Shown: piece after piece, positions 1,310 through 20,617 of the stretch
How positions within the stretch are numbered: the stretch's first letter is position 1
How the letters are laid out: each line of letters begins with the position of its first letter
Assembly (NCBI GenBank): GCA_000004985.1
Contig: GG738874.1
Strand: one strand, 5' to 3'
DNA from: Naegleria gruberi
Lineage: Eukaryota
DNA length: 64,000 bases
The notes under the pieces: model-generated
What the model was told of the DNA's origin: nothing
Databases searched by the model: none
The model's input: only the letters and a program-made list of their open reading frames with translations
Translations under genes and position numbers: made by a program

Positions 1310-2068
1310 TTACTGTACAACATTTGGATTGTGGATATATTCCACAACTTGATCATCATTGGAATGATGGTGTTGAGTGGATTGGGAAGGAAGCACTCTA
1401 TTGTCCTTAATCTCAATTTGAGAAGAGGAATTCGGATGACTTTTCAATGGATCTTCCGCAAGAGCAATAGTAGATGGGTCAGCCGGTTTATCTGTTGAAA
1501 TAGAAATGCTGGATTCATCCTGTTGAACATGTTGTTGTTGATTCCCAACTCCTCTCATTCGTCTTGTAATGAATAACATCTTCCTCCTGAGAGCAACTGA
1601 GTAGGCTCTATATCTGTGAACAAACATTATCAATGAAATCATGAATAATGTCAAGGAAATGACCAGAAGCCAAAGTGGCCACCCATAAAGATTTGTGAAA
1701 TTTCCATGCTCAATTGACTGATTTTCCTCTCCACCACTTGTTCTAAAATTTAGCACAAATATAAAAACAACATATAAAGACAATGAGGCAACTAATAAGA
1801 AAAAGAACAAGGATAGAAAAAACGAAGCAATAATCAGAAAGTTTTTCTGTTTCCTTTCAACAGCGATTGGATCAACTAAACGACCAGCCACTGTTGTTGA
1901 GGTGGTTTGATTTTGAACTGGATCGTTATTAATGTAAACAACCACAACTTCCTGTTGTTGTGGTGGAGTAAGTTGAGGAGTATAGGCAGATGTTTGTTGT
2001 TGTGTAGGTTGAGCATTCATATTAACTGGTTGCATCATATTGTTGGTTGAAGTTTTTGTTTTTTGCAT
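1310..2068 (-). CDS. Q/T-rich N-terminus plus multi-pass transmembrane protein, hypothetical
   Basis: 252-aa ORF with a polyQ/T N-terminal region and 2–3 hydrophobic helices (FLIIASFFLSLFFFLLVASL..., LWLLVISLTLFMISLIMFV). Confidence 0.45.
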   Translation of the reverse strand: MQKTKTSTNNMMQPVNMNAQPTQQQTSAYTPQLTPPQQQEVVVVYINNDPVQNQTTSTTVAGRLVDPIAVERKQKNFLIIASFFLSLFFFLLVASLSLYVVFIFVLNFRTSGGEENQSIEHGNFTNLYGWPLWLLVISLTLFMISLIMFVHRYRAYSVALRRKMLFITRRMRGVGNQQQHVQQDESSISISTDKPADPSTIALAEDPLKSHPNSSSQIEIKDNRVLPSQSTQHHHSNDDQVVEYIHNPNVVQ

Positions 2069-2376
2069 TGGATCACTCTCAGCAATAATTGATGATAGAA
2101 AAAGAGTCAGAATTTGAGAATGGAAATTTTCAATTTTAGGAACTATTCAACATTTGAATGGGTGATAGTTGAACTCTAATCGTGTAACTTGGCTATTAGG
2201 AGGAAAAGTACAAAGTTATGTAAATGGTTGCTTCAAATTTTCAGATTATCGTCCCAATTTGGTAAAATCTCTCTTTATTACCTTTACAAAATCTTTAAAA
2301 TACCACAATATTAATCATGAGAATTAAATAATTAAATATTAAGGGAAAAATGGATTGTTGGAAAACTTGAAAAAAA

Positions 2377-3468
2377 ATGCTCAACACCATCACTAGGAGA
2401 CATTTCTCCCTCCAAAAAACAATCATCACAGGAGGATTCTCAAATTTTCATCACCATCACCAACAACAACAATTGCGAAATTATTCTCACTATAATCCCA
2501 TTCCGGACATTACCTACAAATCAGTAGAACCAGAGCAAGATGTTGCGGGATCTTCTTCAGGTAATCATCATCATCATAAATATATTGATAGTAAGAAGGT
2601 TCCTCTGATTGTGTTGCATGGTTTATTTGGGTCCTATTTGAATTTTTCTACATTTGCTAGACAATATAGTCAGAAGCATCATACCAAGGTTTATTTACTC
2701 AACTTGAGAAATCACTCGGAAAAGCAAAATCACTCAGCAGTGATGAATTTTGCAGTGATGGCTTCTGATTTGGCACATTTTGTGAATAAGCATCATATTG
2801 AGGAGTTTGATTTGTTTGGATTTAGTTTGGGAGGAAAGACATCAATGGCAGCTTGTTTGGGGAATGATTTTAAGAATCATGTTGCTAATAGAGTTAGAAA
2901 ATTGGTAGTGGGTGATATCAGCCCACTTCCTTTGCGTGATAGTGAGTGGGATATTCCAACTGTTATGAATGGATTAGTTTTACTGGATAAACAATTGGAT
3001 AGCATGACTACAAGATCGCAAGCTGATGAATTTTTAAAGAACCACGTACCTAGTCCAGAAGTTAGAAGTTTCCTCTTGAGTAATTTGAAAAAGAAGGATT
3101 CATCGAGTAGTAGAAGTGGAATTTATGATTGGAAATTTAATTTGAGTGCATTAGCTTCTAATTTACATGAAATTGCTGATTTCCCATACAAGACTGACAG
3201 CGTAATTCAAGAACTAAAGCAACTAGGAAGAGAAAATATCACTCAATTGCCTTGGACACCTTTTGAAAAGCCAACCCTTTTCATGAAGGGAGAATTGAGT
3301 CCACTCATTAATTCCAAGAGTGAGAGAACACTCAACACAATGAAAACTTTCTTCCCGAATTATGAACTATTCCAATTCGATGGATGCACTCACTGGATAC
3401 ATGCTGAAAGATATCCTCTCTTCTTTTCCAAGATGGAAGAATTTTTGAATGCTTCAAACAAAGAGTAA
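2377..3468 (+). CDS. alpha/beta-hydrolase fold protein, ABHD11-like
   Basis: HGLFGS oxyanion motif, GFSLGG nucleophile elbow, C-terminal His; N-terminal His/Gln-rich presequence; start preceded by aaaaaaaATG. Confidence 0.75.
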   Translation: MLNTITRRHFSLQKTIITGGFSNFHHHHQQQQLRNYSHYNPIPDITYKSVEPEQDVAGSSSGNHHHHKYIDSKKVPLIVLHGLFGSYLNFSTFARQYSQKHHTKVYLLNLRNHSEKQNHSAVMNFAVMASDLAHFVNKHHIEEFDLFGFSLGGKTSMAACLGNDFKNHVANRVRKLVVGDISPLPLRDSEWDIPTVMNGLVLLDKQLDSMTTRSQADEFLKNHVPSPEVRSFLLSNLKKKDSSSSRSGIYDWKFNLSALASNLHEIADFPYKTDSVIQELKQLGRENITQLPWTPFEKPTLFMKGELSPLINSKSERTLNTMKTFFPNYELFQFDGCTHWIHAERYPLFFSKMEEFLNASNKE

Positions 3469-3577
3469 AGGGATTTTGAATTTAAATACAGATTTTGTAA
3501 CCTACAAAGGAGACTTTGCAAGGTGTTTGCTAAGGGAATTAAGGTACATTGGTACAATTAACAGTAGTTGAATGCAA

Positions 3578-3650
3578 GCTGGCGTAGCTCAGTCGGTAGA
3601 GCGTTGGTCTAATAAGCCATTGGTCGCCGGTTCGATCCCGTCCGTCAGCA
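3578..3650 (+). tRNA. tRNA-Ile (anticodon AAT)
   Basis: 73-nt cloverleaf: acceptor GCTGGCG/CGTCAGC (one G·U), D-arm TAGCTCAGTCGGTAGAGC, anticodon loop CTAATAA, T-loop GGTTCGATCC; close to the eukaryotic tRNA-Ile(AAU) consensus; the 27:43 pair is U:U and the T-stem has one C:U mismatch. Confidence 0.85.
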
Positions 3651-3811
3651 ACAGTTTTATTAAACTAAGTCAACCCTTTTGCCTTGCACTATGTTGATGT
3701 AAACGGATATTCTTGCGAATATGGGCACTGGAGATGTTTTGCATATTTGGTGTTTAGAATATGAAGACGGTTCAATCTTTGTAAACAACTCTGTTGCTTG
3801 ACAGTAAAAAA

Positions 3812-6800
3812 ATGCAACAACTCGAAGAGGAAGTAGACAATCAATTCCTCTTGATTCAAGGTCTTTCACACGAAGTTTGGTTTGAACACATTCTTCCCTT
3901 CCTTTCCTCCTCTTCACTTCTCTCCAGTAGACTAATCAACCGAAACTTTTCCTCCCTAATCCTCTCCTACATTATCAAATTCAAGAGTGAATTCAAAATC
4001 CAAGTTGGTTATCCGAATGTTTTGTTAGCAAAAATCGTTCAATCCCTCCTCACAAAATTACAAAATTTAAAAACCATCACCTATGAAGATTACAATCTCT
4101 TGGAGGATTTTTGTTTGACTGATCAGGGACTTTCCGAATTACATCCTCTACAATATGTGGAAAATGTTGATTTTGCAAGTTTGGGTGTCAGATCAAGTGA
4201 TGGATTGTTTATTAAAGAGTGGATCGATAGAGAGAGTCCAATATTGCAGTCACTCAGGAGATTATCTGTGAATTATGTGATAGATGATGTATGTGTGCTG
4301 TTAGATAATTTTGAAAATTTGAAATCGCTCAGGATTGTATCAGGTTGTGTGAAAATTAAATTACCTAGCCAATTAGAAGAGTTGGAAATAGTTGGGGGAA
4401 TTGAAATAGACACCTTACATCAAATAGTTCAACAATGTCCAAATTTGAAAAGATTATGTGTTAATTTATTCTCAGAATTTATTACAGAACTTAGGGATGA
4501 TTTGAAGCCACTGAAAAATTTGACTTGTCTAAGAATTGATGTTGATGATGTTGTGGTTTACAGATATGATGCAAACTTTTTTGAATCATTGAAAAGTTTT
4601 GAAAATTTGACAGAATTGCAAGTTCCGTGGCCTATTTCAGATACGAATTCAATTCCGTACAAGAATTTGAACCATTTAGGTCAACTATCACAACTAACAT
4701 CTCTCAAATTCAAAACTGTGCTTCGTTATAGAGATATTTTCCCAAAATCAATTGGAAAGGTTGTGGAAACAATTAGCTCTCTTCATTCTTTAACTAGTCT
4801 TTTTCTAGATTTTTCAGCTATTGATGTAAAAGTTAATTTTAGTCACGAATTTTTCGACAATATTCCAAAATTGCATAATCTTGAAGAGTTTACTTATGCT
4901 GATGAAGGTGGTTTTTCTGACATTTTTAATCATTTTTGTGTTACTACTTTGAAACATTTGAGTTTCAAGTCGGTTGGCCTAACTATCCAAACCGATCAAT
5001 ATTATCCTAATCTTGAATGTATTCAAATGGTAACCAATGAAATCGAAGAGGATGATTTAAATCATTTCAAAATGATTCAACAAGTTAATCTTTCAAAGGT
5101 TAAAATATTGAAAATTGGTTCAGTCAACTTGGAAACTTTGGAATTAATATCACAAATGACAAACCTGGAGGAATTATCAATAGTGAAAATGAGAAACATT
5201 TCTTCTTTCAAAACTGTTAAGCTTCCAAAATTATTGAGATACTTGGTATTAGAGGAATGCCACTATTTAACAGGAAACGAAGAAGATTTCTTTGAAAGCT
5301 TTATTGAATCATGTCCATTGCTGGAAAAAGTCGAATTTTGTACAGTTCCTTTATTGCAAGACTCGTTTGTTAAAAAGATTTGTGCTTGGATTGAAAATGG
5401 TGCTGACCATAAGAAGCTCTTCTTCTGGAAATGTGCCAGTTTGACAAATGACATGATTTACTCATTCAAAGATATCACCAAATGCAAATTTGTAATCTTT
5501 CAAGAATGCCCCCAAATTCACTATACAAGAGAAATTTCTGAGATTTTGACAAACCATGAATTTATTCAAATATTTGGAGGATTCAACAGTAATTCCCTTG
5601 ACACCACAAATACTTCCAACTATGTAATCAATGATCTGAATGTTATTAATTCACTCGAAACATTCGAAACAGTTATTAGAAACTCACTTGATTTGAAACA
5701 GCATCAAAAAGCATTCTTTCAAATGCTTACCAATATGTTTGAAGGGTGCATCTCAGAAAATACTAAAGATGAGAAACCATTATATAGGGAACTGCAGAAA
5801 TCAGAGTTTGAAACTCAATGGTTTTTCTACTATTCATTTGTGATGTGTGCAGCTTTTGCTGATAGAACAATTGATCATTGCTTTAGGAAAGCTATGGAAT
5901 TGGTTTTTACAGAATCGAACGAGAAGTTAATTAATACTCAAGAAAAGAAGAAGCTACTAATTGATTTATTAGAAGATTTGGAAGATCAACTTGAAGAGGA
6001 TACATTGAAATTTGTTATTGAGAAACTATTGGAAAATAGATATTTCGATAAGACACTGAGTGTAGGAATTGAAAGTCATGAATGGCATGAAAAATTGGTT
6101 GATTCAATGAGTGAGGAGGATATATTCCAATTGCCATATTTACACAATCTTCTCAATTTAAATACTGATCTCCTTGGAAGGATTGTTAAAAAGAGTCAAT
6201 TATTCAAAAATTGTGCATCATTCATCCAGAAATTACAAGATACTTCTATTGGACCAATTTCTGACCCCGAGAGTTTAGATATTAGAGATAGAGTTCCTGA
6301 AAGATTTAAAAACGCCTTCCTCACTGAAGTTATGGTTCCAATGGGGAAGACTGAATGGGATGAAGAACAATCAGGGGAGTCCCTTCCGTTTGAGGCATTT
6401 GGTTACAGATGGGTTCTTAAACTGTCAGAAGAAGGTGGTTGGTTGTCAATTTATTTGAGTCTTGCATCACCTATTCCAATTTCTAATGGATCTGAAACAT
6501 CTGAATATGAAACACTCACTGGAAATGATGGAAGTTCAATTGAAATTTCATTCATGTTATTGAACTTTGATAACAACCCACATACGTACTTTAGTGGAAG
6601 AAATATCTTGAGTCAATCTGAAAGGGACTACTATCTCTCTATTAGATCAAATTTGGTTCAGAAGTTTTCAGAGGATAGTTACAAATTTCTCATTGGTATG
6701 AATGCCATTTCTATTAAGGAGAAAATACCTTGCCCGTTCCTATCTTCCAAATATTCAATTCACAGGATTTCATTCCATGTTCCACTCGAATTGAAAAATT

Positions 6801-7162
6801 ATTATTACAATGAAATTAAGGTATACTCTGATCCCATAACTACATTAGGAACTAAATGGACTGTAAAATTGGAAAAGAAATTAGATAGTGGAATTTTTGG
6901 ATTATACTTAATGTTGTCATCTTTCGATTTGTATGATGAAAAATCTGCTCTCAGCAAGTGTCGTGTTTTCTTTCATTTTGCCAATAAGAATCTTCATCCT
7001 GACTCGACTCACTCTTATAGAAAAACATTCTCTGATACTAGTTCATCGGTTGGAGGACAAATTGTCAAACATCGAGAGTTATTCAAACCAATGATTATCA
7101 ATGGAGAAAGATTTGAAACATATGACATTTCACTCATTATGGAAATCAAGTCAATTTTTTAA
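3812..7162 (+). CDS. F-box / leucine-rich-repeat protein with two C-terminal MATH (TRAF-like) domains
   Basis: N-terminus LSHEVWFEHILPFLSSSSLLSSRLINRNF is F-box-like; then long LRR-like repeats (L..L..L.I..C.NL); the C-terminal 260 aa carry two MATH-like modules (FEAFGYRWVLKLSEEGGWLSIYL..., YSIHRISFHVPLELKNYYYNEIKV...); ATG at 3812 has an aaaaaaATG context, and the track start 3794 is an alternative TTG start. Confidence 0.7.
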   Translation: MQQLEEEVDNQFLLIQGLSHEVWFEHILPFLSSSSLLSSRLINRNFSSLILSYIIKFKSEFKIQVGYPNVLLAKIVQSLLTKLQNLKTITYEDYNLLEDFCLTDQGLSELHPLQYVENVDFASLGVRSSDGLFIKEWIDRESPILQSLRRLSVNYVIDDVCVLLDNFENLKSLRIVSGCVKIKLPSQLEELEIVGGIEIDTLHQIVQQCPNLKRLCVNLFSEFITELRDDLKPLKNLTCLRIDVDDVVVYRYDANFFESLKSFENLTELQVPWPISDTNSIPYKNLNHLGQLSQLTSLKFKTVLRYRDIFPKSIGKVVETISSLHSLTSLFLDFSAIDVKVNFSHEFFDNIPKLHNLEEFTYADEGGFSDIFNHFCVTTLKHLSFKSVGLTIQTDQYYPNLECIQMVTNEIEEDDLNHFKMIQQVNLSKVKILKIGSVNLETLELISQMTNLEELSIVKMRNISSFKTVKLPKLLRYLVLEECHYLTGNEEDFFESFIESCPLLEKVEFCTVPLLQDSFVKKICAWIENGADHKKLFFWKCASLTNDMIYSFKDITKCKFVIFQECPQIHYTREISEILTNHEFIQIFGGFNSNSLDTTNTSNYVINDLNVINSLETFETVIRNSLDLKQHQKAFFQMLTNMFEGCISENTKDEKPLYRELQKSEFETQWFFYYSFVMCAAFADRTIDHCFRKAMELVFTESNEKLINTQEKKKLLIDLLEDLEDQLEEDTLKFVIEKLLENRYFDKTLSVGIESHEWHEKLVDSMSEEDIFQLPYLHNLLNLNTDLLGRIVKKSQLFKNCASFIQKLQDTSIGPISDPESLDIRDRVPERFKNAFLTEVMVPMGKTEWDEEQSGESLPFEAFGYRWVLKLSEEGGWLSIYLSLASPIPISNGSETSEYETLTGNDGSSIEISFMLLNFDNNPHTYFSGRNILSQSERDYYLSIRSNLVQKFSEDSYKFLIGMNAISIKEKIPCPFLSSKYSIHRISFHVPLELKNYYYNEIKVYSDPITTLGTKWTVKLEKKLDSGIFGLYLMLSSFDLYDEKSALSKCRVFFHFANKNLHPDSTHSYRKTFSDTSSSVGGQIVKHRELFKPMIINGERFETYDISLIMEIKSIF

Positions 7163-7348
7163 ATAGAAAATTCAACATTACAATATTATTCCAATTACAA
7201 CGGTCTTTTAATAGAAACTTTTGGCCAATTCAAATTACCTATGATCAAAAATTGAGAAATGGAATAATTGATAGAAATAATTCAAATTAATCGTAAATAA
7301 TTGTATTGTAACCTCACAGCAAATCAATCTTAGAAAAAAAGCATAAAA

Positions 7349-8491
7349 ATGTCCAAAGTATATTTCTGGGGTGCGATTGGAGTGAAAGGTGTTCAATCGG
7401 ATGAACCAGCACTATTGGCCGGAGGAAAGAAGAGTTCAGTGACCTCATTGAAACCATTATTGGCTGCTGCTGAGATTGTTCAGGTGAGTGCTGGTGGAAG
7501 TTTTTGTGCCATGTTGGATTTGGAGGGAAATGTTTATTCGTTCGGGAAGGGTGCTGATCATCGATTGGGATTGGGTGATGAGAGGGATCATTTTGAGAGT
7601 CCTGCCAAGATTCCTCAACTCAAGGCTTCAATTGTTAGTGCTGGTTATAGTCATGGAATGGCTCTATTGAAGGATTGTAAGAATAAGGTAGTTTTGTGGG
7701 GTAAATTATCACCTCAACTGACTTTTATGAAACCAACAGAGAAGGTTGTTGAATTGCAAGACGATGATGATCAGATTGTTTCTCTCCGATCAGGAAATGG
7801 ATACTCTGCAGTGATTACAAAGAAGGGACATGTTTTCATGATTGGAAGAAATTCTTTTTACAAGTGTGGATTTGCTGAGAATGCTGATTTGGACTCGTTT
7901 AAACAATTGGTTATCAATGACAATGGAAATAAGTATGATACATTTAAAGATATTGATTTGGGTTATGATAGTACATTGGCAATTACTGCTACTGGAGAGG
8001 TCTTTGGTTTTGGCAGTAATAATTGTTATCAATTGGGAATTGGAAAGGTCATTAAGGTTGGAGGACACGTGCCAACTCGCTTGACCTTCTCCTCTCCGAT
8101 TAATCCAGTTCAGGTTGCTTGTTCTAGAGGTTCTGGACATCATTGTCATGGTGTTGTGTTGGATGCTGATGGAGTACTTCACTCTTTTGGATCTGGATAC
8201 AAATACAAATTAGGGACTACCACAACAGATGATCAACCAGTTCCAGTCAAGGTTGACTTTGATATTAAGGTAAAGCAAGTTATTCCAGGTGGAATTCACA
8301 ACTTCTCTCTTACTGTTGATAATGAGCTAGTCAGCTTTGGTTGTGGATCTGATGGAAGATTAGGACACGAGGAATCAAAGAACTATCGATACTTGTACAA
8401 GGAAACTGAACCAAGAAAAATCGAAGGTCTGGGAAATAAGGTAGTGCAGGCTGATTCAGATTATTATTTTGGCATTGCCATTGTAAAATAA
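7349..8491 (+). CDS. RCC1-repeat (regulator of chromosome condensation-like) protein
   Basis: Seven repeats of the G-x-G-x2-G-x-LG beta-propeller motif (FGKGADHRLGLGD, FGSNNCYQLGIG, FGCGSDGRLGHEE). Confidence 0.75.
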   Translation: MSKVYFWGAIGVKGVQSDEPALLAGGKKSSVTSLKPLLAAAEIVQVSAGGSFCAMLDLEGNVYSFGKGADHRLGLGDERDHFESPAKIPQLKASIVSAGYSHGMALLKDCKNKVVLWGKLSPQLTFMKPTEKVVELQDDDDQIVSLRSGNGYSAVITKKGHVFMIGRNSFYKCGFAENADLDSFKQLVINDNGNKYDTFKDIDLGYDSTLAITATGEVFGFGSNNCYQLGIGKVIKVGGHVPTRLTFSSPINPVQVACSRGSGHHCHGVVLDADGVLHSFGSGYKYKLGTTTTDDQPVPVKVDFDIKVKQVIPGGIHNFSLTVDNELVSFGCGSDGRLGHEESKNYRYLYKETEPRKIEGLGNKVVQADSDYYFGIAIVK

Positions 8492-15358: not shown

Positions 15359-15889
15359 TCACCTCCTCACAACTGCTCCACTTCTACATTGATATAATTT
15401 CAAAGATTGTACTATTTTTCCAAAATGTGAAAGAAATCTCTTTCTGATTTTTGCATCATGTTCCATTATTGCATAATTATCACCACCAGATGAAATATCA
15501 TAAATTCTCCTCTTCAAATAAGGTCCAATAATTTCGAATAATACAACCAAACTCTTTCTTGGATAGAAAATCATCAAGGTTTGATTCGGAGTGTGCACAA
15601 CCTTTGTAATTGGATCCACAAATTCCTTTCCTCTATTAAAGTACTTCCGCCTGTGACTTGCAATGTTTGACCTCTTGGTATTGAAATATCGGGATTGATT
15701 ATTGTCATCAATTTGTAAACTGGCAATATAATTGAACATGAGTTTTTGTTGAATAGTTTGATGACCACAACATGTTGCTATCAGACAAGGATCCTCTTTG
15801 AAAAGAGATGAGAAGTATGTCCACGGTAGATATTCAAAAATATGACCAATAATTTCCGAAGGGAGCACCTGATTCATTGTTGTGACCAT
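15359..15889 (-). CDS. F-box-like hypothetical protein
   Basis: 176-aa ORF; the N-terminus LPSEIIGHIFEYLP resembles an F-box; no other domain found. Confidence 0.4.
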   Translation of the reverse strand: MVTTMNQVLPSEIIGHIFEYLPWTYFSSLFKEDPCLIATCCGHQTIQQKLMFNYIASLQIDDNNQSRYFNTKRSNIASHRRKYFNRGKEFVDPITKVVHTPNQTLMIFYPRKSLVVLFEIIGPYLKRRIYDISSGGDNYAIMEHDAKIRKRFLSHFGKIVQSLKLYQCRSGAVVRR

Positions 15890-16260
15890 TTTTTTTTGAT
15901 GCCTTTACAATATCTTTGGACTTGATCAAATTATTTGGAAATAATAATCCTTTTCATCAACCCTTTCCCAAGATAAAAAAATATGCCAAACGCATCAGTC
16001 TTGATTTTTGTAATTTGGGATACGGATATTGAAATATTTTACGTAAATGTTTAAGTATTTTGTATATTCTAGCTTGATTTGGAACTAAGAAACAGCAATA
16101 AGGTGATTGTCAACCATGGGATGATCCAAATTGTTCAACAGAAGCAATTTGAAGAACCCATTTAGAATTAAGCCTAATGAAACGATAGCCTATAATACTC
16201 ATAAAGGTACTCCTGATTCTAATATAAAAATTAATTTATTATTTTTACTTTTCATGACAA

Positions 16261-16332
16261 CGGCCGTATAGCTCAGTGGTAGAGCTTCTCTCTCGTAAGG
16301 AGAAGGTCGTGGGTTCAAACCCCATTGCGGCC
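16261..16332 (+). tRNA. tRNA-Thr (anticodon CGT)
   Basis: 72-nt cloverleaf: acceptor GGCCGTA/TGCGGCC, D-arm AGCTCAGTGGTAGAGC, anticodon stem-loop TCTCT-CTCGTAA-GGAGA, T-arm GTGGGTTCAAACCCCAT. Confidence 0.85.
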
Positions 16333-16340
16333 AAATTTGA

Positions 16341-16511
16341 ATTTTAATCTTTTGCTATTCCTCGCTTTGTTTTTTGATATTTTTACTTTATTTTTTCAAA
16401 TTCTCACATTTACAAGTTTATCTACATGTGGTTCAATTTTCCAATCTTTAATTCAAGAAATGATTGAGAATGAGCTGTTCTAAAGTGGGTACATGATTTT
16501 TCGCTTGAATT
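16341..16511 (+). repeat. repeat R1 (bipartite: 16341-16358 and 16437-16511), direct copy of R2; begins 9 bp after the tRNA-Thr 3' end
   Basis: ttttaatcttttgctatt plus the 75-bp core ttttccaatctttaattcaagaaatgattgagaa..tacatgatttttcgcttgaattt are both repeated at 18384-18495; R1 has an extra 78-bp insert between the two parts. Confidence 0.6.
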
Positions 16512-16923
16512 TCAGGTTAAAAATGAGAAACTACCACAATGCATACATTACAAAAAATGCACAAAACATCAACTGCACATCACACAATTGTGAATGTGTC
16601 GTCTTTGCAGAGTGGTTCTTCAGCCACTATTAGAGGATCTGCAACAACATCATCACCCAACACAATAACAATGTTGCAAACTACGAGTTGACATCTTCAA
16701 TAATATCATTTTTTATGATTGGAAATATCACTAATATCCTGGAAATGAAGTAATTTTATTGTTCAACCAGGTTAATTGGAAAACTAGTAGTACGTGGACA
16801 AGTCACTCGAGTTGCGTAGCCTTAATTTTTTCAAATCCAACAAATCAAAAAAATGGCAGTACCAGAGGGAAAACTCTACCACAATTTTACAACTACTTTG
16901 TCCCAAATCATCATCACAATTTA

Positions 16924-18372
16924 TTATTTTTCCATAGACAATACTCTTTGAAAACTCAACAAGTTCACCATTCTCTCCTTCATTCCTAAATCAATAACTT
17001 CCGATCTTGCATGCTTTTCCATGTGCTCAAAATAATGGCACCCATCGCAAAGCAATTCAAATTCCTTCAATTTTTCTACTTGTTCCTCTTCGGTCATTCC
17101 AAGAATTAACTTGTACTCATTAACATTATTGGCTATTTCCCTCTCTTCCTCATCGATATCTTCTGTTGCTTGAGCTCTCTTCTTCACACCATCCCTATTC
17201 TTGTGATGCACATGGAATATCTTTCCCAATTCTGAATTAGATTCAAAAGACAAGCCACATTCCTGACATTTTCCTCCCATCAGAGTGATCATCTTTTCAT
17301 GACAATATTGCCAATTAGAACCACCTTCAACATTCCTTGCATGTTCCAAACCATGACAAGGTCTGCACAATACTTCCAACTTTTCATTCTTCTTGAACCA
17401 ATCAGCTCCAAGCTTTCTGAATTCGGGAATGAATTTTGTTGTACTCTTAAATGTCTTTGTAAAGTCATCATCTTTATACATGACATGATGAAGAGTGAAT
17501 GCATTAACCTCATGTAAATGTTCCATTTCAATACGACATCTATTGCACTTGATTGACAAATCATCCCTCTCCAACACTTCTCTTAAAAAAGTATGAATGG
17601 CAGCTTGCTTTTTTCTGGAAATGTAAACAGCACATCTGGGACATGTTTCATCATCCTTCAATTTAACAGAACCAAAACAAAAATGGCAGTTGACACCTTC
17701 AGCTCTAATCTTGTTAATCCTGTCACTCATTTGAAGTATAGTCTTTTTGGAACATTCCTTGCACTTGTCCCTATTTGTCTTCGAAACAAGTTGGCCGCAT
17801 CCACACAACCCTTGGTCTCTACGAGTGCATTTTCGTGCTCTTTCCAACTCGTTAGCTCTCTCACGTTGCTCATTGGATTGAGCAATGTGATTACTTAACT
17901 TCTTAACAAAATCTCTAAAGCCATTAGAGTATTGAAAAGTTCCATCATGAATAGCATTTTTGAATTTCTACCAAGTTTCTATTCTCTTTTCATTATTCTT
18001 GAATTTATCTGGGAAATGATCATACAATTCTTGGACATATGCAAGATAAGCCCTTGCCAATTTCGAACCATATTCATGAGAAATATTGGATGAAGGTCTT
18101 GGAGGACACTTGTTGAGTTTAACATTATCCAATATGGGAAGGAATTCTTCCAAGATTGAATTGTTGGGTTGATTTCTCTTCTTGGTTGGTGGAGTTGATT
18201 CAATGGTAGAATCCCTTCTCTTCTTACTATCATTACTTGATGAAGGCTTGTTGGAATTATTTGAAGATTGACCAGAGTTGCTAATAATAATACATGATGA
18301 TTGACTAGTTGATGATGATGAAGCCTTTCTGGTAGACTTTGGTTGAATTGATAACGTGGTTGATGATAACAC
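16924..18372 (-). CDS. Cys-rich protein with two tandem HNH-nuclease (ββα-Me) motifs; single ORF interrupted by one in-frame TAG (17968-17970), so a pseudogene or read-through
   Basis: ORFs 17968..18372 and 16924..17847 share one frame, separated only by TGG-TAG-AAA; the N-terminus is S/N-rich; a zinc ribbon follows (CTRRDQGLCGCG..CKEC); two HNH cores are present (C-x2-C..LHHV..N..LCRPCHGLEH and CQEC..HVHHKNRDG..LLCDGCHYFEH); the ATG lies 12 bp from repeat R2. Confidence 0.55.
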
Positions 18373-18383
18373 TTGATTTCCTT

Positions 18384-18495
18384 TTTAATCTTTTGCTATT
18401 TTCTCCACCATTTCGCTAATTTTCCAATCTTTAATTCAAGAAATGATTGAGAACTAGCTGTTCTAATCTTGGTACATGATTTTTCGCTTGAATTT
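18384..18495 (+). repeat. repeat R2 (18384-18400 plus 18420-18495), direct copy of R1; forms the 5' flank of the HNH gene
   Basis: See R1; about 90% identity over the 75-bp core. Confidence 0.6.
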
Positions 18496-18899
18496 TTGCC
18501 TTGAAAAACATCAGATTTTCATAATGTTGTAAATTTACCAATGCCTTGAAAAACATGTTTTCAGTCGTAATTGAGTAAACAATCAGGAGTTTGGCTAATT
18601 TTAAAAATGCATGTTGTTATTGTATTGTTATCACCATCAAGTTCTTTCACAATCTCCATTTTTGAGTGACAACACATTCATTTTGATAAGGATGTACGAT
18701 TTGTTCACATTTCACACAAACAAACCTTCTATTTATGACCAATTTGAAGAAGAAACTCTTTTCAACAAAAATTTTCACGTTAATGAATCTGATTATCAAT
18801 ACATTCATTGTATTTTTGAATTTCACTTGATTGAAATTTTTCAAGGCTTTGAAATTTCAATGGATAGTACGTTTCATAGTTCAGTAAAGATGAACAGCA

Positions 18900-19155
18900 C
18901 ATGTGTCGGCTGTACTGTCAAGGCTTGGGATGAGAGTATACTAATATCTGGAATCATCTTCTTCATCTTGTCACTCATTGGGATTGTATTCTTTTTGGAA
19001 CATTCTTTGCACTTGTCCCTATTTGTCTTCGAAACAGGTTGGCCGCATCCACACAACCCTTGTTCTCTACGAGTGCATTTTCTTGCTCTTTCCAATTCAT
19101 TAGCCCTCTCACGTTGCTCATTGGATTGAGCAATGTGATTACTCAAGTTCTTCAC
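18900..19155 (-). pseudogene. decayed partial second copy of the HNH-protein gene (corresponds to about 17690-17900 of copy 1)
   Basis: 18985-19155 is about 95% identical to 17743-17900; it encodes ..LSNHIAQSNEQRERANELERARKCTRREQGLCGCGQPVSKTNRDKCKECSKK and then diverges with indels; it is truncated at both ends. Confidence 0.55.
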
Positions 19156-19325
19156 AAATTGATTTTAATAAACTAGTTCCCAATTTTATTCCAAACGTTT
19201 TTCTTGTCCATTAAGTTTCTTACTTCACTCTTTTTCAATCAATATGGAATTATTTACAAAATTCTTCAAAAGAGCAAACAAATCAGTCACCTTTCTTTAA
19301 ATACCTTTCAAAAACATTAAAAAAA

Positions 19326-20617
19326 ATGGAAGTAATCAAATGTGTCGTTCTCGGTGATGGTGCTGTTGGCAAGTCCAATCTCCTCATTTCCTACACTTGT
19401 GAAGGTATCTTTCCAGAAGATTACGTTCCCACCGTAATGGACAATTATTGCAAGACCGTACAAGTCTTCCTCCCAGAAGAAAAACCGCACACTCACCACC
19501 ATCACAACGATACATCGAGCGTGAACAGTTTGAACTCGTCGTCATCGGTTGGCGCCAACCATCAACAACAACAACAACATACAACCAACAATAATATTAA
19601 TAATACTAATAATAATAATAATAGTAATAATAATAGTGGTGGTAGTAGTAGTAATGAACAGAGTAATTCACCAGCTTTGAATCAGTCAGCCTCATCCACT
19701 TCGGAAAAAAAGTTGACCATTGTATCATCACATGCTTTGAATAATTCAAACATTTCAACTGGAGGAGGAGAAGAAAATCAAGTTTTAGAAACAGAGGAAG
19801 ATCATACCTTGCTAACACCAACTTATATTTCTCTACAATTGTGTGATACATCGGGTCAAGAAGGTTTGTTTTTATTGAATTTCATTGAACTTATTCCAAT
19901 ATTTTTTATTGTTTAAACCTTTCGAATAATTTCATTCACTTTCGAATAATAGAATATGATCGATTACGTTCTGATCTATCTGATTATGCTTCTGCTGATG
20001 TATTTTTGTTTTGTTTTTCATTGGATAATCCTCAGTCATTGGAAAATCTTCATTCCAAGTGGTATGATGAAGTGGTCAATTATTTCCAAACTCACAAACA
20101 CCAAGGAGGAGGTGTCTTATCACTTTTTGGAGCTATATATTCATACTTTGGTTTTGGAGGTGTGACTTCTAGTACCAACACTGATGAAACCAGCAAGGAA
20201 GGTCACAACATTACAGACAACTTGCCACCAATCATTTTGGTTGGTACCAAATTGGATAAATTAAAAACAACAACTGTGGAAATAACCGAATCAGCAACAG
20301 GTCAAATATTGGAAAAACCAATTTCTACCGATACAAGAAGGAGAAATAATTCCATCTATCACATGTTTGGAAATGTGACCAAGATAAATGAAGCTCCACA
20401 ATTATTGAAAATTAGAGAACAAGCTCTCCAAGTCAAGAAGGATATGAAGGCAGTTGCCTATGTGGAGGTTAGTTCAAAAACAATGGAAAATATCAATGAA
20501 ATGTTCGAGGATATTGTCGTTCCAGTTGTTTTGAAGAGAAGAAAAGAAATGGAAAAGAAGAGAAAGGGTACTATATCACCAGGTTCTACAACTGCATCTT
20601 CATCATCCAATCAGTAG
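19326..20617 (+). CDS. Rho/Rac-family small GTPase, atypical, with an N/Q/H-rich insert and no CAAX; join(19326..19863,19953..20617)
   Basis: G1 motif [11 protein letters not shown]; switch YVPTVMDNY; DTSGQE|[10 protein letters not shown] spans an 89-nt GT..AG intron; Rho motifs LVGTKLD and EVSSKT follow; about 110 aa of low complexity are inserted between β2 and β3; the C-terminus ..SSSSNQ lacks a prenylation motif. Confidence 0.7.

Follow-up and report, generated by a model that had tools for sequence, protein, structure and literature searches.

A decaying tandem-HNH gene beside tRNA-Thr in Naegleria gruberi and its relatives at other tRNA genes: a candidate homing-type element

The stretch of DNA analysed here (the window; 64,000 nucleotides of contig GG738874.1 in the Naegleria gruberi assembly GCA_000004985.1) carries, directly downstream of an apparently intact tRNA-Thr(CGT) gene with the T-arm TCGTGGGTTCAAACCCCA, a minus-strand reading frame for a protein with two predicted HNH nuclease cores. 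Two direct copies of a repeat, termed R, flank this reading frame, and a partial second copy of the gene lies further out (Table 1). A preliminary description, made from the letters alone, had proposed at this site a tRNA-associated, recently duplicated and decaying mobile-like unit, and had placed it in a dictyostelid. The host is N. gruberi, a member of the Heterolobosea, and the gene model EFC43390.1 maps exactly to the locus; the comparison that had been drawn with TRE5/TRE3, DIRS, skipper, DGLT-A and Tdd is therefore beside the point, the host not being a dictyostelid.

Table 1. Features of the tandem-HNH locus (positions are those of the window)
Feature	Position	Strand	Basis
tRNA-Thr(CGT)	16262..16333	+	ARAGORN; Rfam RF00005, 69.8 bits, E 2e-14
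R1, full-length copy of repeat R, ~178 nt	16334..16512	+	repeat comparison
Spacer A, 410 nt, between R1 and the 3' end of the reading frame	16513..16923	.	
Tandem-HNH reading frame, 482 codons, stop codon 16924-16926	16924..18372	-	
Predicted HNH core 2: CQECG .. FHVHH .. NEYKL .. ELLC DGCHYFEH	17017..17271	-	
Predicted HNH core 1: CNRC .. FTLHH (strand) .. helical insert .. LEVLC (strand) RPCHGLEH (helix)	17335..17550	-	
Two N-terminal zinc-ribbon-like Cys pairs (C-x-C..CKEC; CHFC..CPRC) after a long helix	17620..17829	-	motifs; AF2 model
R2, second copy of R, abutting the 5' end of the reading frame in antisense	18376..18495	+	
Spacer B, 460 nt, unique, between R2 and the gene fragment	18496..18955	.	
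Gene fragment, residues 155-222, 203 nt	18956..19158	-	

R1 begins 1-2 nt past the 3' end of tRNA-Thr, and not 9 bp after it as first described, and R2 begins 3 nt beyond the 5' end of the open reading frame (ORF). The two direct repeats are real, but the coordinates and the identity of about 90% originally given for them required correction: the copies share a 78-nt core (16435-16512 vs 18418-18495) at 94% identity and a 25-nt head (16335-16359 vs 18376-18400) at 88% identity, and R2 is without a 58-nt stretch that R1 has. R1 opens with T-runs (AATTTGAATTTTAATCTTTTGC) that could act as a terminator for RNA polymerase III (Pol III). A 23-nt core of R, TGATTGAGAANNAGCTGTTCTAA, occurs at two sites in the 64 kb, namely in R1 and in R2, where 0.02 would be expected by chance, and no further copies of the ORF or of R were found in the window. 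Rfam returned the tRNA only over 15900-19400; R thus corresponds to no known RNA family. No homology of spacer A to spacer B or to other loci was detected, and spacer B resembled neither spacer A nor the ORF nor any locus more than shuffled controls did.

The partial second copy of the gene had been reported at 18900-19155 with ~95% identity; it exists, but it occupies the shorter interval listed in Table 1 and matches the ORF part 17708-17910 on the same strand at 91% DNA identity. The 18 differences between ORF and fragment fall at codon positions 1, 2 and 3 in the ratio 2/5/11, a pattern from which the divergence is judged to have arisen partly under protein-level constraint. This third-position bias fits two insertions of once-functional copies better than it fits a duplicate that decayed in situ.

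The minus-strand ORF was recovered as first described, with a single in-frame TAG (17968-17970), and it has no ATG across its first ~220 codons. The Joint Genome Institute (JGI) gene model EFC43390.1 (NAEGRDRAFT_68753; 456 aa) joins the exons 18808-18728, 18282-18037 and 17967-16927 with zero mismatches to the window, and its second 'intron' (18036-17968, minus strand) removes the TAG. At 69 nt, this 'intron' has a length divisible by three, and it starts with the non-canonical GTCCAAG; its translation (..AYLAYVQELYDHFPDKF..) aligns residue by residue with coding sequence of the family member P0007 (..AYIPYLRLLYNAFPEVF..). The second intron was therefore rejected as an annotation artefact, and the TAG is taken to be a real lesion. 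The first exon of the model takes its 27 codons from unrelated spacer sequence (18808-18728). In EFC43390, an ORF was forced through a pseudogene, and the model is an artefact; the window ORF is a recently inactivated copy.

The N-terminus of the encoded protein is S/N-rich with basic stretches that resemble nuclear localisation signals (NLS), and the N-termini across the family are S/T-rich, basic and NLS-like. The window protein has four zinc-binding motifs, one four-Cys site in each core and the two preceding Cys-pair ribbons. The spacing C-x2-C / HH / C-x2-C-H-x3-H is present twice; in the numbering of a 346-residue fragment, core 1 has CNRC at 140, HH at 159 and CRPCHGLEH at 200-208, and core 2 has CQEC at 233, HH at 253 and CDGCHYFEH at 306-314. 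In the alignment of the second core (HNH2), H55/H56, C35/C38/C108/C111 and H112/H116 are invariant, and their equivalents are kept in the first core (HNH1). The canonical HNH spacing of the preliminary description is thereby borne out, but the Asn of the motif is not clearly conserved.

The window protein had no significant HNH match when its sequence was searched against Pfam, NCBIfam and PDB. Homology to HNH nucleases was nevertheless accepted because three independent results agree. Firstly, in a profile comparison with hhalign, core 2 of five family members matched a small phage-type HNH profile (96%, E 4.4e-9), one phage domain of which passes Pfam HNH. Secondly, the family member P0003, which matches the window protein with an E-value of 1.4e-34, itself matches PHROG HNH endonuclease families (best phrog_8048, 1.7e-8). 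Thirdly, an AlphaFold2 (AF2) model built from a 13-sequence family alignment (predicted local distance difference test score, pLDDT, 77.8) folds FTLHH/LEVLC/RPCHGLEH and FHVHH/FELLC/DGCHYFEH into two strand-strand-helix units, and a Foldseek search of a viral structure library returned HNH endonucleases of giant viruses as the best matches, Medusavirus first (E 5.5e-7), then Clandestinovirus, Barrevirus, Marseillevirus and Pithovirus. These structural matches had E-values of 5.5e-7 to 2e-4, a probability of 1.0 and 290-400 aligned columns, with template modelling scores (TM-scores) of 0.28-0.38. Matches to PDB structures were not significant, and the weak ones were mostly HNH nucleases (Cap5, endonuclease VII and the Cas9 HNH domain). 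By motif and by model, the window protein has two HNH cores and is a predicted nuclease, and the HNH fold first suggested from the letters withstood profile and structural comparison.

A bona fide HNH reference on the phage side was locus L005 (IMG/VR UViG 3300008216_000363), a T7-like phage contig on which a 127-aa HNH endonuclease (4860-5243) sits between the primase-helicase and DNA polymerase genes; it was the sole viral-contig relative from a pattern search.

The protein family was assembled by an exhaustive HMMER scan of 1.84 billion proteins; a word-index search with the whole 482-aa protein returned no matches, probably swamped by low-complexity words. The scan gave 11 cluster representatives at E 1e-3; those with a named source come from N. 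gruberi, N. fowleri or N. lovaniensis only, and the others from metagenome or read-archive assemblies. Among the matches was a 200-aa N. gruberi protein with 95% identity to the C-terminus of the window protein, and four gene models of N. gruberi fall into its cluster. The weakest family match, P0011, belongs with phage-type HNH PHROG families and comes from metagenome contigs. The Naegleria proteins are 260-480 aa long, and their annotations say no more than predicted or hypothetical; an apparently intact copy in the family, P0004, has 430 aa. The gene models of N. gruberi number at least four, EFC43390 included, on four scaffolds, and these are 94-95% identical over their common C-terminal 200 residues; EFC47221, EFC35473 and EFC35404 (P0001, P0013 and P0014) are identical to the window copy at 188-190 of 200 positions. 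Two of these three lie on unplaced contigs of 2.3 and 3.9 kb, as is typical of unresolved repeats. All three models start at the same internal Met, equivalent to residue 283 of the window ORF, and share substitutions absent from the window copy, which suggests either a shared lesion upstream or a shared 5' truncation in a separate subfamily. In metagenomes, neither a peptide pattern nor the R core found a match, and a description of the family was not found in the literature on Naegleria HNH proteins or on Naegleria transposable elements and tRNA genes.

Decay was scored in the copies with readable DNA, that is, the window and the loci L001-L004, L006, L008 and L009. The gene has a stop and a frameshift and no start codon in L001; it stops after core 1 in L002 (N. 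lovaniensis), where similarity runs on past the stop; it is reduced to core 2 and the end of core 1 in L003 (N. fowleri); and it ends within or before core 2 in L006 and L008. L004 and L009 appear open. The gene of L006 has, within 1276-1345, an ATG of its own with ten codons (MKSNRKQTIS) and a canonical GTAAGT..AG intron, after which comes the conserved LAKIYLEW.. region; this is evidence for expression of the family as a eukaryotic nuclear gene. With most copies broken and those of N. gruberi 94-95% identical, the family is multi-copy, recently duplicated and decaying rather than housekeeping, in keeping with the earlier proposal.

A tRNA gene lies 23-763 bp from the family gene in seven of the eight independent loci. 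The associated tRNA is Thr-CGT in the window, Leu-CAG in L001 and L002, Leu-TAA in L003, Val-CAC in L006, Thr-CGT with an intron in L008 and Arg-CCT in L009. Seven of the ten tRNAs in 117 kb fall within the 21 kb of ±1.5-kb flanks (binomial P 4e-4), and, with the background density measured outside the flanks, association at seven of eight loci has a chance probability of ~1e-7. The tRNAs belong to five species and the genes around them vary from locus to locus, so that the association does not stem from conserved synteny. The link to tRNA genes noted at the window thus recurs in six of seven further loci of other genomes. As counter-evidence, the preliminary description had named a single-copy, syntenic gene, the lack of a tRNA link, the lack of an HNH fold and an R that is a common simple repeat; none of the four was found.

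In six of the seven associated loci the gene lies 3' of the tRNA, and the adjoining tRNAs keep Rfam scores of 54-70 bits, so that the presumed target is apparently not destroyed. The three other tRNA genes of the window are unoccupied and stand in tight gaps of ~300 bp between genes. The T-arm sequence TCGTGGGTTCRAWYCCCA is found in five of the seven associated tRNAs and in none of the three unoccupied ones, which, with so small a background sample, is only a lead. The tRNA of L008 (105-187), which ARAGORN called as Cys(ACA), was corrected to tRNA-Thr(CGT) with an 11-nt intron after the anticodon (Rfam 57.6 bits), and it is the same isoacceptor as that of the window.

The repeat R was also found beside a different tRNA gene. 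In L001, the sequence from the first nucleotide after tRNA-Leu(CAG) is homologous to R over ~170 nt at 68% identity, with the 23-nt core identical (z = 18.9 against shuffles), and the head of R2 (TTTCC..TTTTGCTATTTTCTCCA) is nearer to this tRNA-Leu trailer than is the head of R1. The spacers beside R in the window and in L001 do not align. Since R stands directly 3' of different tRNAs in these two loci, R travels with the gene and is precisely joined to the tRNA 3' end. In L006, from a more distant organism, the layout is tRNA-Val, Ra (886-1056, beginning 7 nt after the tRNA), ORF and Rb (2086-2247); Ra and Rb are 76-82% identical to one another and unrelated in sequence to R. The letters before Rb, GACCGCA, are similar to the end of the tRNA, CGACGCA, and the ATG and intron of the L006 gene lie 220 nt after Ra. 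Conservation of R across all lineages was considered and dropped, as shuffle-controlled homology held for just two pairs, R of the window with R of L001 and Ra with Rb inside L006; searching loosely by motif for a common 3' end of R was uninformative.

Extra copies of tRNA 3' ends were found at two further loci. L002 has three tandem 35-nt units (7400-7496) and L009, from a metagenome, has two tandem 26-nt units (~2110-2149), each an exact copy of the tRNA 3' end with its trailer. The units consist of tRNA nucleotides 62/63-73 (the last 11-12 nt) plus 15-23 nt of trailer, and they start inside the 3' strand of the T-stem; ~0.2 such copies would be expected by chance. Relic targets or stacked, decaying copies, the presumably newest nearest the target, an arrangement expected of homing elements, were seen in the window, L006, L002 and L009. 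In the window, the full R1 and the near-intact ORF are proximal to the tRNA, and the shortened R2 and the 203-nt fragment are distal.

We give an even chance to the reading that 16334-19158 represents two stacked units of a free-standing, homing-type selfish element inserted at tRNA 3' ends. A unit would comprise a trailer module, R, joined to the tRNA 3' end, and the gene for a tandem-HNH endonuclease with four zinc sites. On this view, tRNA genes that carry no unit would be cleaved by the nuclease at or near the T-arm and acceptor 3' end, and the host would repair the break by copying in a unit from an occupied gene, along with the terminator-bearing trailer of that unit. A further invasion of the tRNA would displace the resident trailer and gene to a more distal position and leave them to decay. 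In the window, unit 1 would be R1, spacer A and the near-intact ORF beside tRNA-Thr, and unit 2, presumably older and displaced, would be the shortened R2, spacer B and the 203-nt fragment. More speculatively, the two tandem HNH cores might each nick one strand, and the 26-35-nt tandem duplications might be filled-in staggered cuts; cuts would then be expected close to tRNA nt 62-66 and 15-35 nt further downstream. What the loci themselves show is the HNH homology, the copy number and decay, the tRNA association, the junctions and the repeats; nuclease activity, the target site, homing as the means of spread and the order of the insertions we infer from them.

Such stacking explains why the better-preserved unit is next to the tRNA, why R2 has a trailer-like start where no tRNA is present, why the distal unit has shrunk to a short R and a gene fragment, and why copies of tRNA 3' ends occur at other loci. 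In the preliminary description, the tRNA was thought to sit where a second gene copy should be; R as the tRNA-proximal end, or trailer, of each unit fits the related loci at least as well. A simple tandem duplication followed by deletion was also considered for unit 2 and was rejected, spacer B matching nothing in unit 1.

Several observations weigh against a homing-type element at tRNA 3' ends. The apparently intact and best-preserved copy, L004, has no tRNA within reach, and the window itself was picked through its tRNA, and without it the count is six of seven loci. The structure is not fixed relative to the target, as would be expected of a homing element: relative to the tRNA and R, the ORF is convergent at three loci (the window, L003, L009) and same-sense at three others (L001, L006, L008), and in L002 the gene is on the 5' side of the tRNA; L001 has R in common with the window, yet its ORF has the opposite orientation. 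The spacers A and B are non-homologous although R1/R2 and the gene pieces are homologous. As for the protein, the Asn of the phage-type C-x-N-C-H motif is replaced (CRPCH, CDGCH), an upstream Asn (NEKLEVLC; NEYKL) is conserved only in part, and Pfam HNH PF01844 is sub-threshold in every family member (best E 0.0037). The occurrence of a start codon in R, described below, may be a coincidence; alternatively, the gene may become complete only where two units join, and this would speak for an intermediate that is circular or tandem. Other mobile elements (DIRS-like and one bounded by terminal inverted repeats, TIR-like) lie near the tRNA in two Naegleria loci, which makes passive accumulation a live alternative.

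Passive accumulation is the best of the alternatives, if an unlikely one: the HNH gene would move by another route or as a passenger, the tRNA flanks would be tolerated sites in a compact genome, and the nuclease would not target tRNA genes. The exact junctions argue against it, as R joins the tRNA at the first nucleotides past its 3' end at two tRNAs in two genomes and Ra of L006 follows at 7 nt. Orientation and spacing of the ORF relative to the tRNA do vary, as a passenger would allow, and there is other mobile DNA in the vicinity, with a DIRS-like retroelement 3 kb from the tRNA of L003 in N. fowleri, and related DIRS-like DNA in the N. lovaniensis locus together with an inverted-end element 300 bp from its tRNA; however, nothing has been inserted in the gaps around the three unoccupied tRNAs of the window, and the extra tRNA 3'-end copies point to breakage at that very spot.

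A less probable alternative is an integrative element with a circular form, in which R serves as an attachment-like or homology module, integration beside the tRNA yields R-body-R, and circular permutation on integration puts the start codon of the gene into R and its body at the far end, so that the gene is complete only in the circle or in a tandem dimer. Direct R repeats flank a body both in the window and in L006, and the window ORF, which is without an ATG of its own, is given an in-frame ATG (18411-18409) by R2 read in antisense; the frame then runs into the ORF as M V E K I A K D stop K G N Q V L S S.., and R of L001, read in antisense, gives the same MEKIAKGN at its end nearest the tRNA. 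The common ATG could, however, simply reflect the homology of R, and the R2 frame is interrupted by a TAA (18387-18385) that is also present in R1. Furthermore, a recombinase is not encoded, the ORFs of L001 and L006 have the opposite orientation relative to R, and the L006 gene has an ATG of its own and a GTAAGT intron.

More doubtful still is the view that the locus is a remnant of giant-virus DNA (nucleocytoplasmic large DNA viruses, NCLDV) integrated at tRNA genes, the HNH gene being a leftover viral homing endonuclease. tRNA genes are classical integration sites, and the best structural matches, over 290-400 columns, are HNH endonucleases of amoeba-infecting giant viruses, but each locus has only this one gene within 2-3 kb and ordinary host genes around it; no viral hallmark genes were found among the neighbours, and host-type genes flank the window and other loci. 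The intron after codon 10 in L006 is of eukaryotic type, the N-termini of the family have an NLS-like character, and among the 1.84 billion proteins there was no identifiably viral protein at E 1e-3.

That this is an ordinary lineage-specific gene, decaying after local tandem duplication beside a tRNA by coincidence, is very improbable, for although two direct repeats and a same-strand fragment look, within the window alone, like a messy tandem duplication, the tRNA association holds at seven of eight loci (P ~1e-7), R recurs beside a different tRNA in another genome, four N. gruberi scaffolds carry 94-95% identical copies, the spacers are non-homologous and the third-position bias speaks against decay in situ.

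If the reading as a homing-type element at tRNA 3' ends is generalised, one may tentatively propose for Naegleria and related heteroloboseans an undescribed class of nuclear homing element, although we would not yet lean towards it. Its tandem-HNH nuclease, possibly of giant-virus ancestry, would recognise the TpsiC-arm and 3' end of tRNA genes, its cores would nick one strand each a few tens of bp apart, and it would insert together with its own terminator-bearing trailer and, tRNA genes being a multi-copy target, spread both allelically and between different tRNA genes, leaving behind stacked pseudogenes and duplicated tRNA 3' ends.

The nuclear homing elements known from eukaryotes are few, comprising the His-Cys box enzymes of group I introns in ribosomal DNA, the VDE intein and the WHO elements of yeasts. 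The proposed element would differ from known homing elements in its tandem-HNH nuclease, its tRNA gene target and its heterolobosean host. WHO elements of Torulaspora and Lachancea yeasts home into FBA1 and replace its 3' end, every invader supplying a 3' end or flank of its own and displacing older ones outward, and their clusters hold decaying genes and relic 3' ends, the newest nearest the target, with occasional moves elsewhere (Coughlan et al. 2020, PMC7282813). The Naegleria unit is likewise free-standing, nuclear and 3' of a conserved host gene, and the window, L006 and the relic ends of L002 and L009 match the WHO layout; unlike WHO, whose nuclease is LAGLIDADG/intein-derived, it has a tandem-HNH nuclease, its target would be multi-copy Pol III tRNA genes and not one protein-coding gene, its ORF orientation is variable, and its cleavage and homing are only proposed.

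In phage T4, the homing endonuclease SegB is encoded in a tRNA cluster, and its recognition site includes a TpsiC stem-loop motif (PMC2330249). The genes studied here lie beside tRNAs, of which five of seven have the T-arm TCGTGGGTTCRAWYCCCA in common; however, SegB is a GIY-YIG enzyme of a phage genome, whereas the Naegleria protein combines two HNH cores with zinc ribbons and an NLS-like N-terminus and is encoded on nuclear chromosomes. Its HNH2 core is homologous to phage-type HNH domains (phrog_2255, phrog_3106 and phrog_8048). The giant-virus HNH endonucleases resemble the Naegleria protein in size and multi-module build and are its best whole-protein structural matches, but the TM-scores are low, and the present family differs in its cellular setting and in the spliceosomal-type intron of one copy.

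The unit is also comparable to a eukaryotic element with direct terminal repeats and repeat-sharing tandem arrays, in which a His-Me/HNH-type nuclease is proposed to drive amplification through induced recombination; unlike that element, the Naegleria unit has no transposase and its site is tRNA-linked. With regard to KolobokP and the traits of DDE DNA transposons, Pfam found no transposase domain in the ORF or the flanking ORFs. Dictyostelium TRE5/TRE3 and DGLT-A and yeast Ty3 insert tens to hundreds of bp from tRNAs in compact genomes, where stacked insertions occur. Those elements carry reverse transcriptase (RT) and integrase or apurinic/apyrimidinic endonuclease (APE) nucleases; in contrast, no RT, integrase or APE domain was found in the ORF or flanking ORFs, and the unit has no poly(A) tail.

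Were the proposal correct, a free-standing HNH nuclease at tRNA genes would add both a new nuclease class and a new multi-copy target to the nuclear homing elements of eukaryotes, would represent a convergence at the DNA level with the tRNA-targeting retrotransposons of other compact genomes, and would account for 'predicted protein' models in the annotations of N. gruberi, N. fowleri and N. lovaniensis. A nuclease that recognised the tRNA T-arm would be a natural sequence-specific enzyme with a conserved eukaryotic target, and might serve as a tool, or the element as a marker for typing Naegleria strains. Through its structural resemblance to HNH endonucleases of giant viruses, the protein is also relevant to gene flow between amoebae and their viruses.

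Around the unit, Pfam identified window neighbours encoding cofilin/ADF (twinfilin-like), a Ras/Rho GTPase and DUF455; the tRNA-Thr locus is bounded by a gene at 15359-15889 and by the GTPase gene at 19326. A plus-strand ORF of 76 aa (16759-16989), which starts in spacer A and extends 66 nt into the 3' end of the tandem-HNH ORF, and a plus-strand ORF of 172 aa in spacer B had no Pfam match, and the inverted repeats in 15500-20000 are weak and short only.

Other mobile DNA was present at two of the related loci. In L003 (N. fowleri VFQX01000004), a decayed DIRS-like retroelement on the minus strand (1771-4750) has an RVT_1 domain (E 2.7e-18) and a Dam-like methyltransferase domain (E 1.5e-4) and lies 3 kb from both the HNH remnant and tRNA-Leu. 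The non-syntenic HNH/tRNA locus of N. lovaniensis, L002 (PYSW02000073), has at 4121-4714 DNA that is 68-75% identical to this element. L002 also contains, at ~5930-7190, a sequence with the inverted ends ..TTTTGGCGACTGGCGATTTTCGCC.. / ..GGCGAAAATCGCCAGTCG..GTCGCCAAAAT.. and many CGCCAATT-type subterminal repeats around an acidic gene of 233 aa. This sequence resembles a small TIR transposon, and its distance from the 3' side of tRNA-Leu(CAG) is 300 bp. The tRNA neighbourhoods of Naegleria may thus collect several mobile families. At L004, a 245-nt tandem duplication (5459-5943; 93% identical) lies just 5' of the intact-looking, tRNA-less copy, and the 89 nt directly after the stop codon of that copy (7400-7488) recur 4.4 kb upstream, at 2939-3018, with 75% identity.

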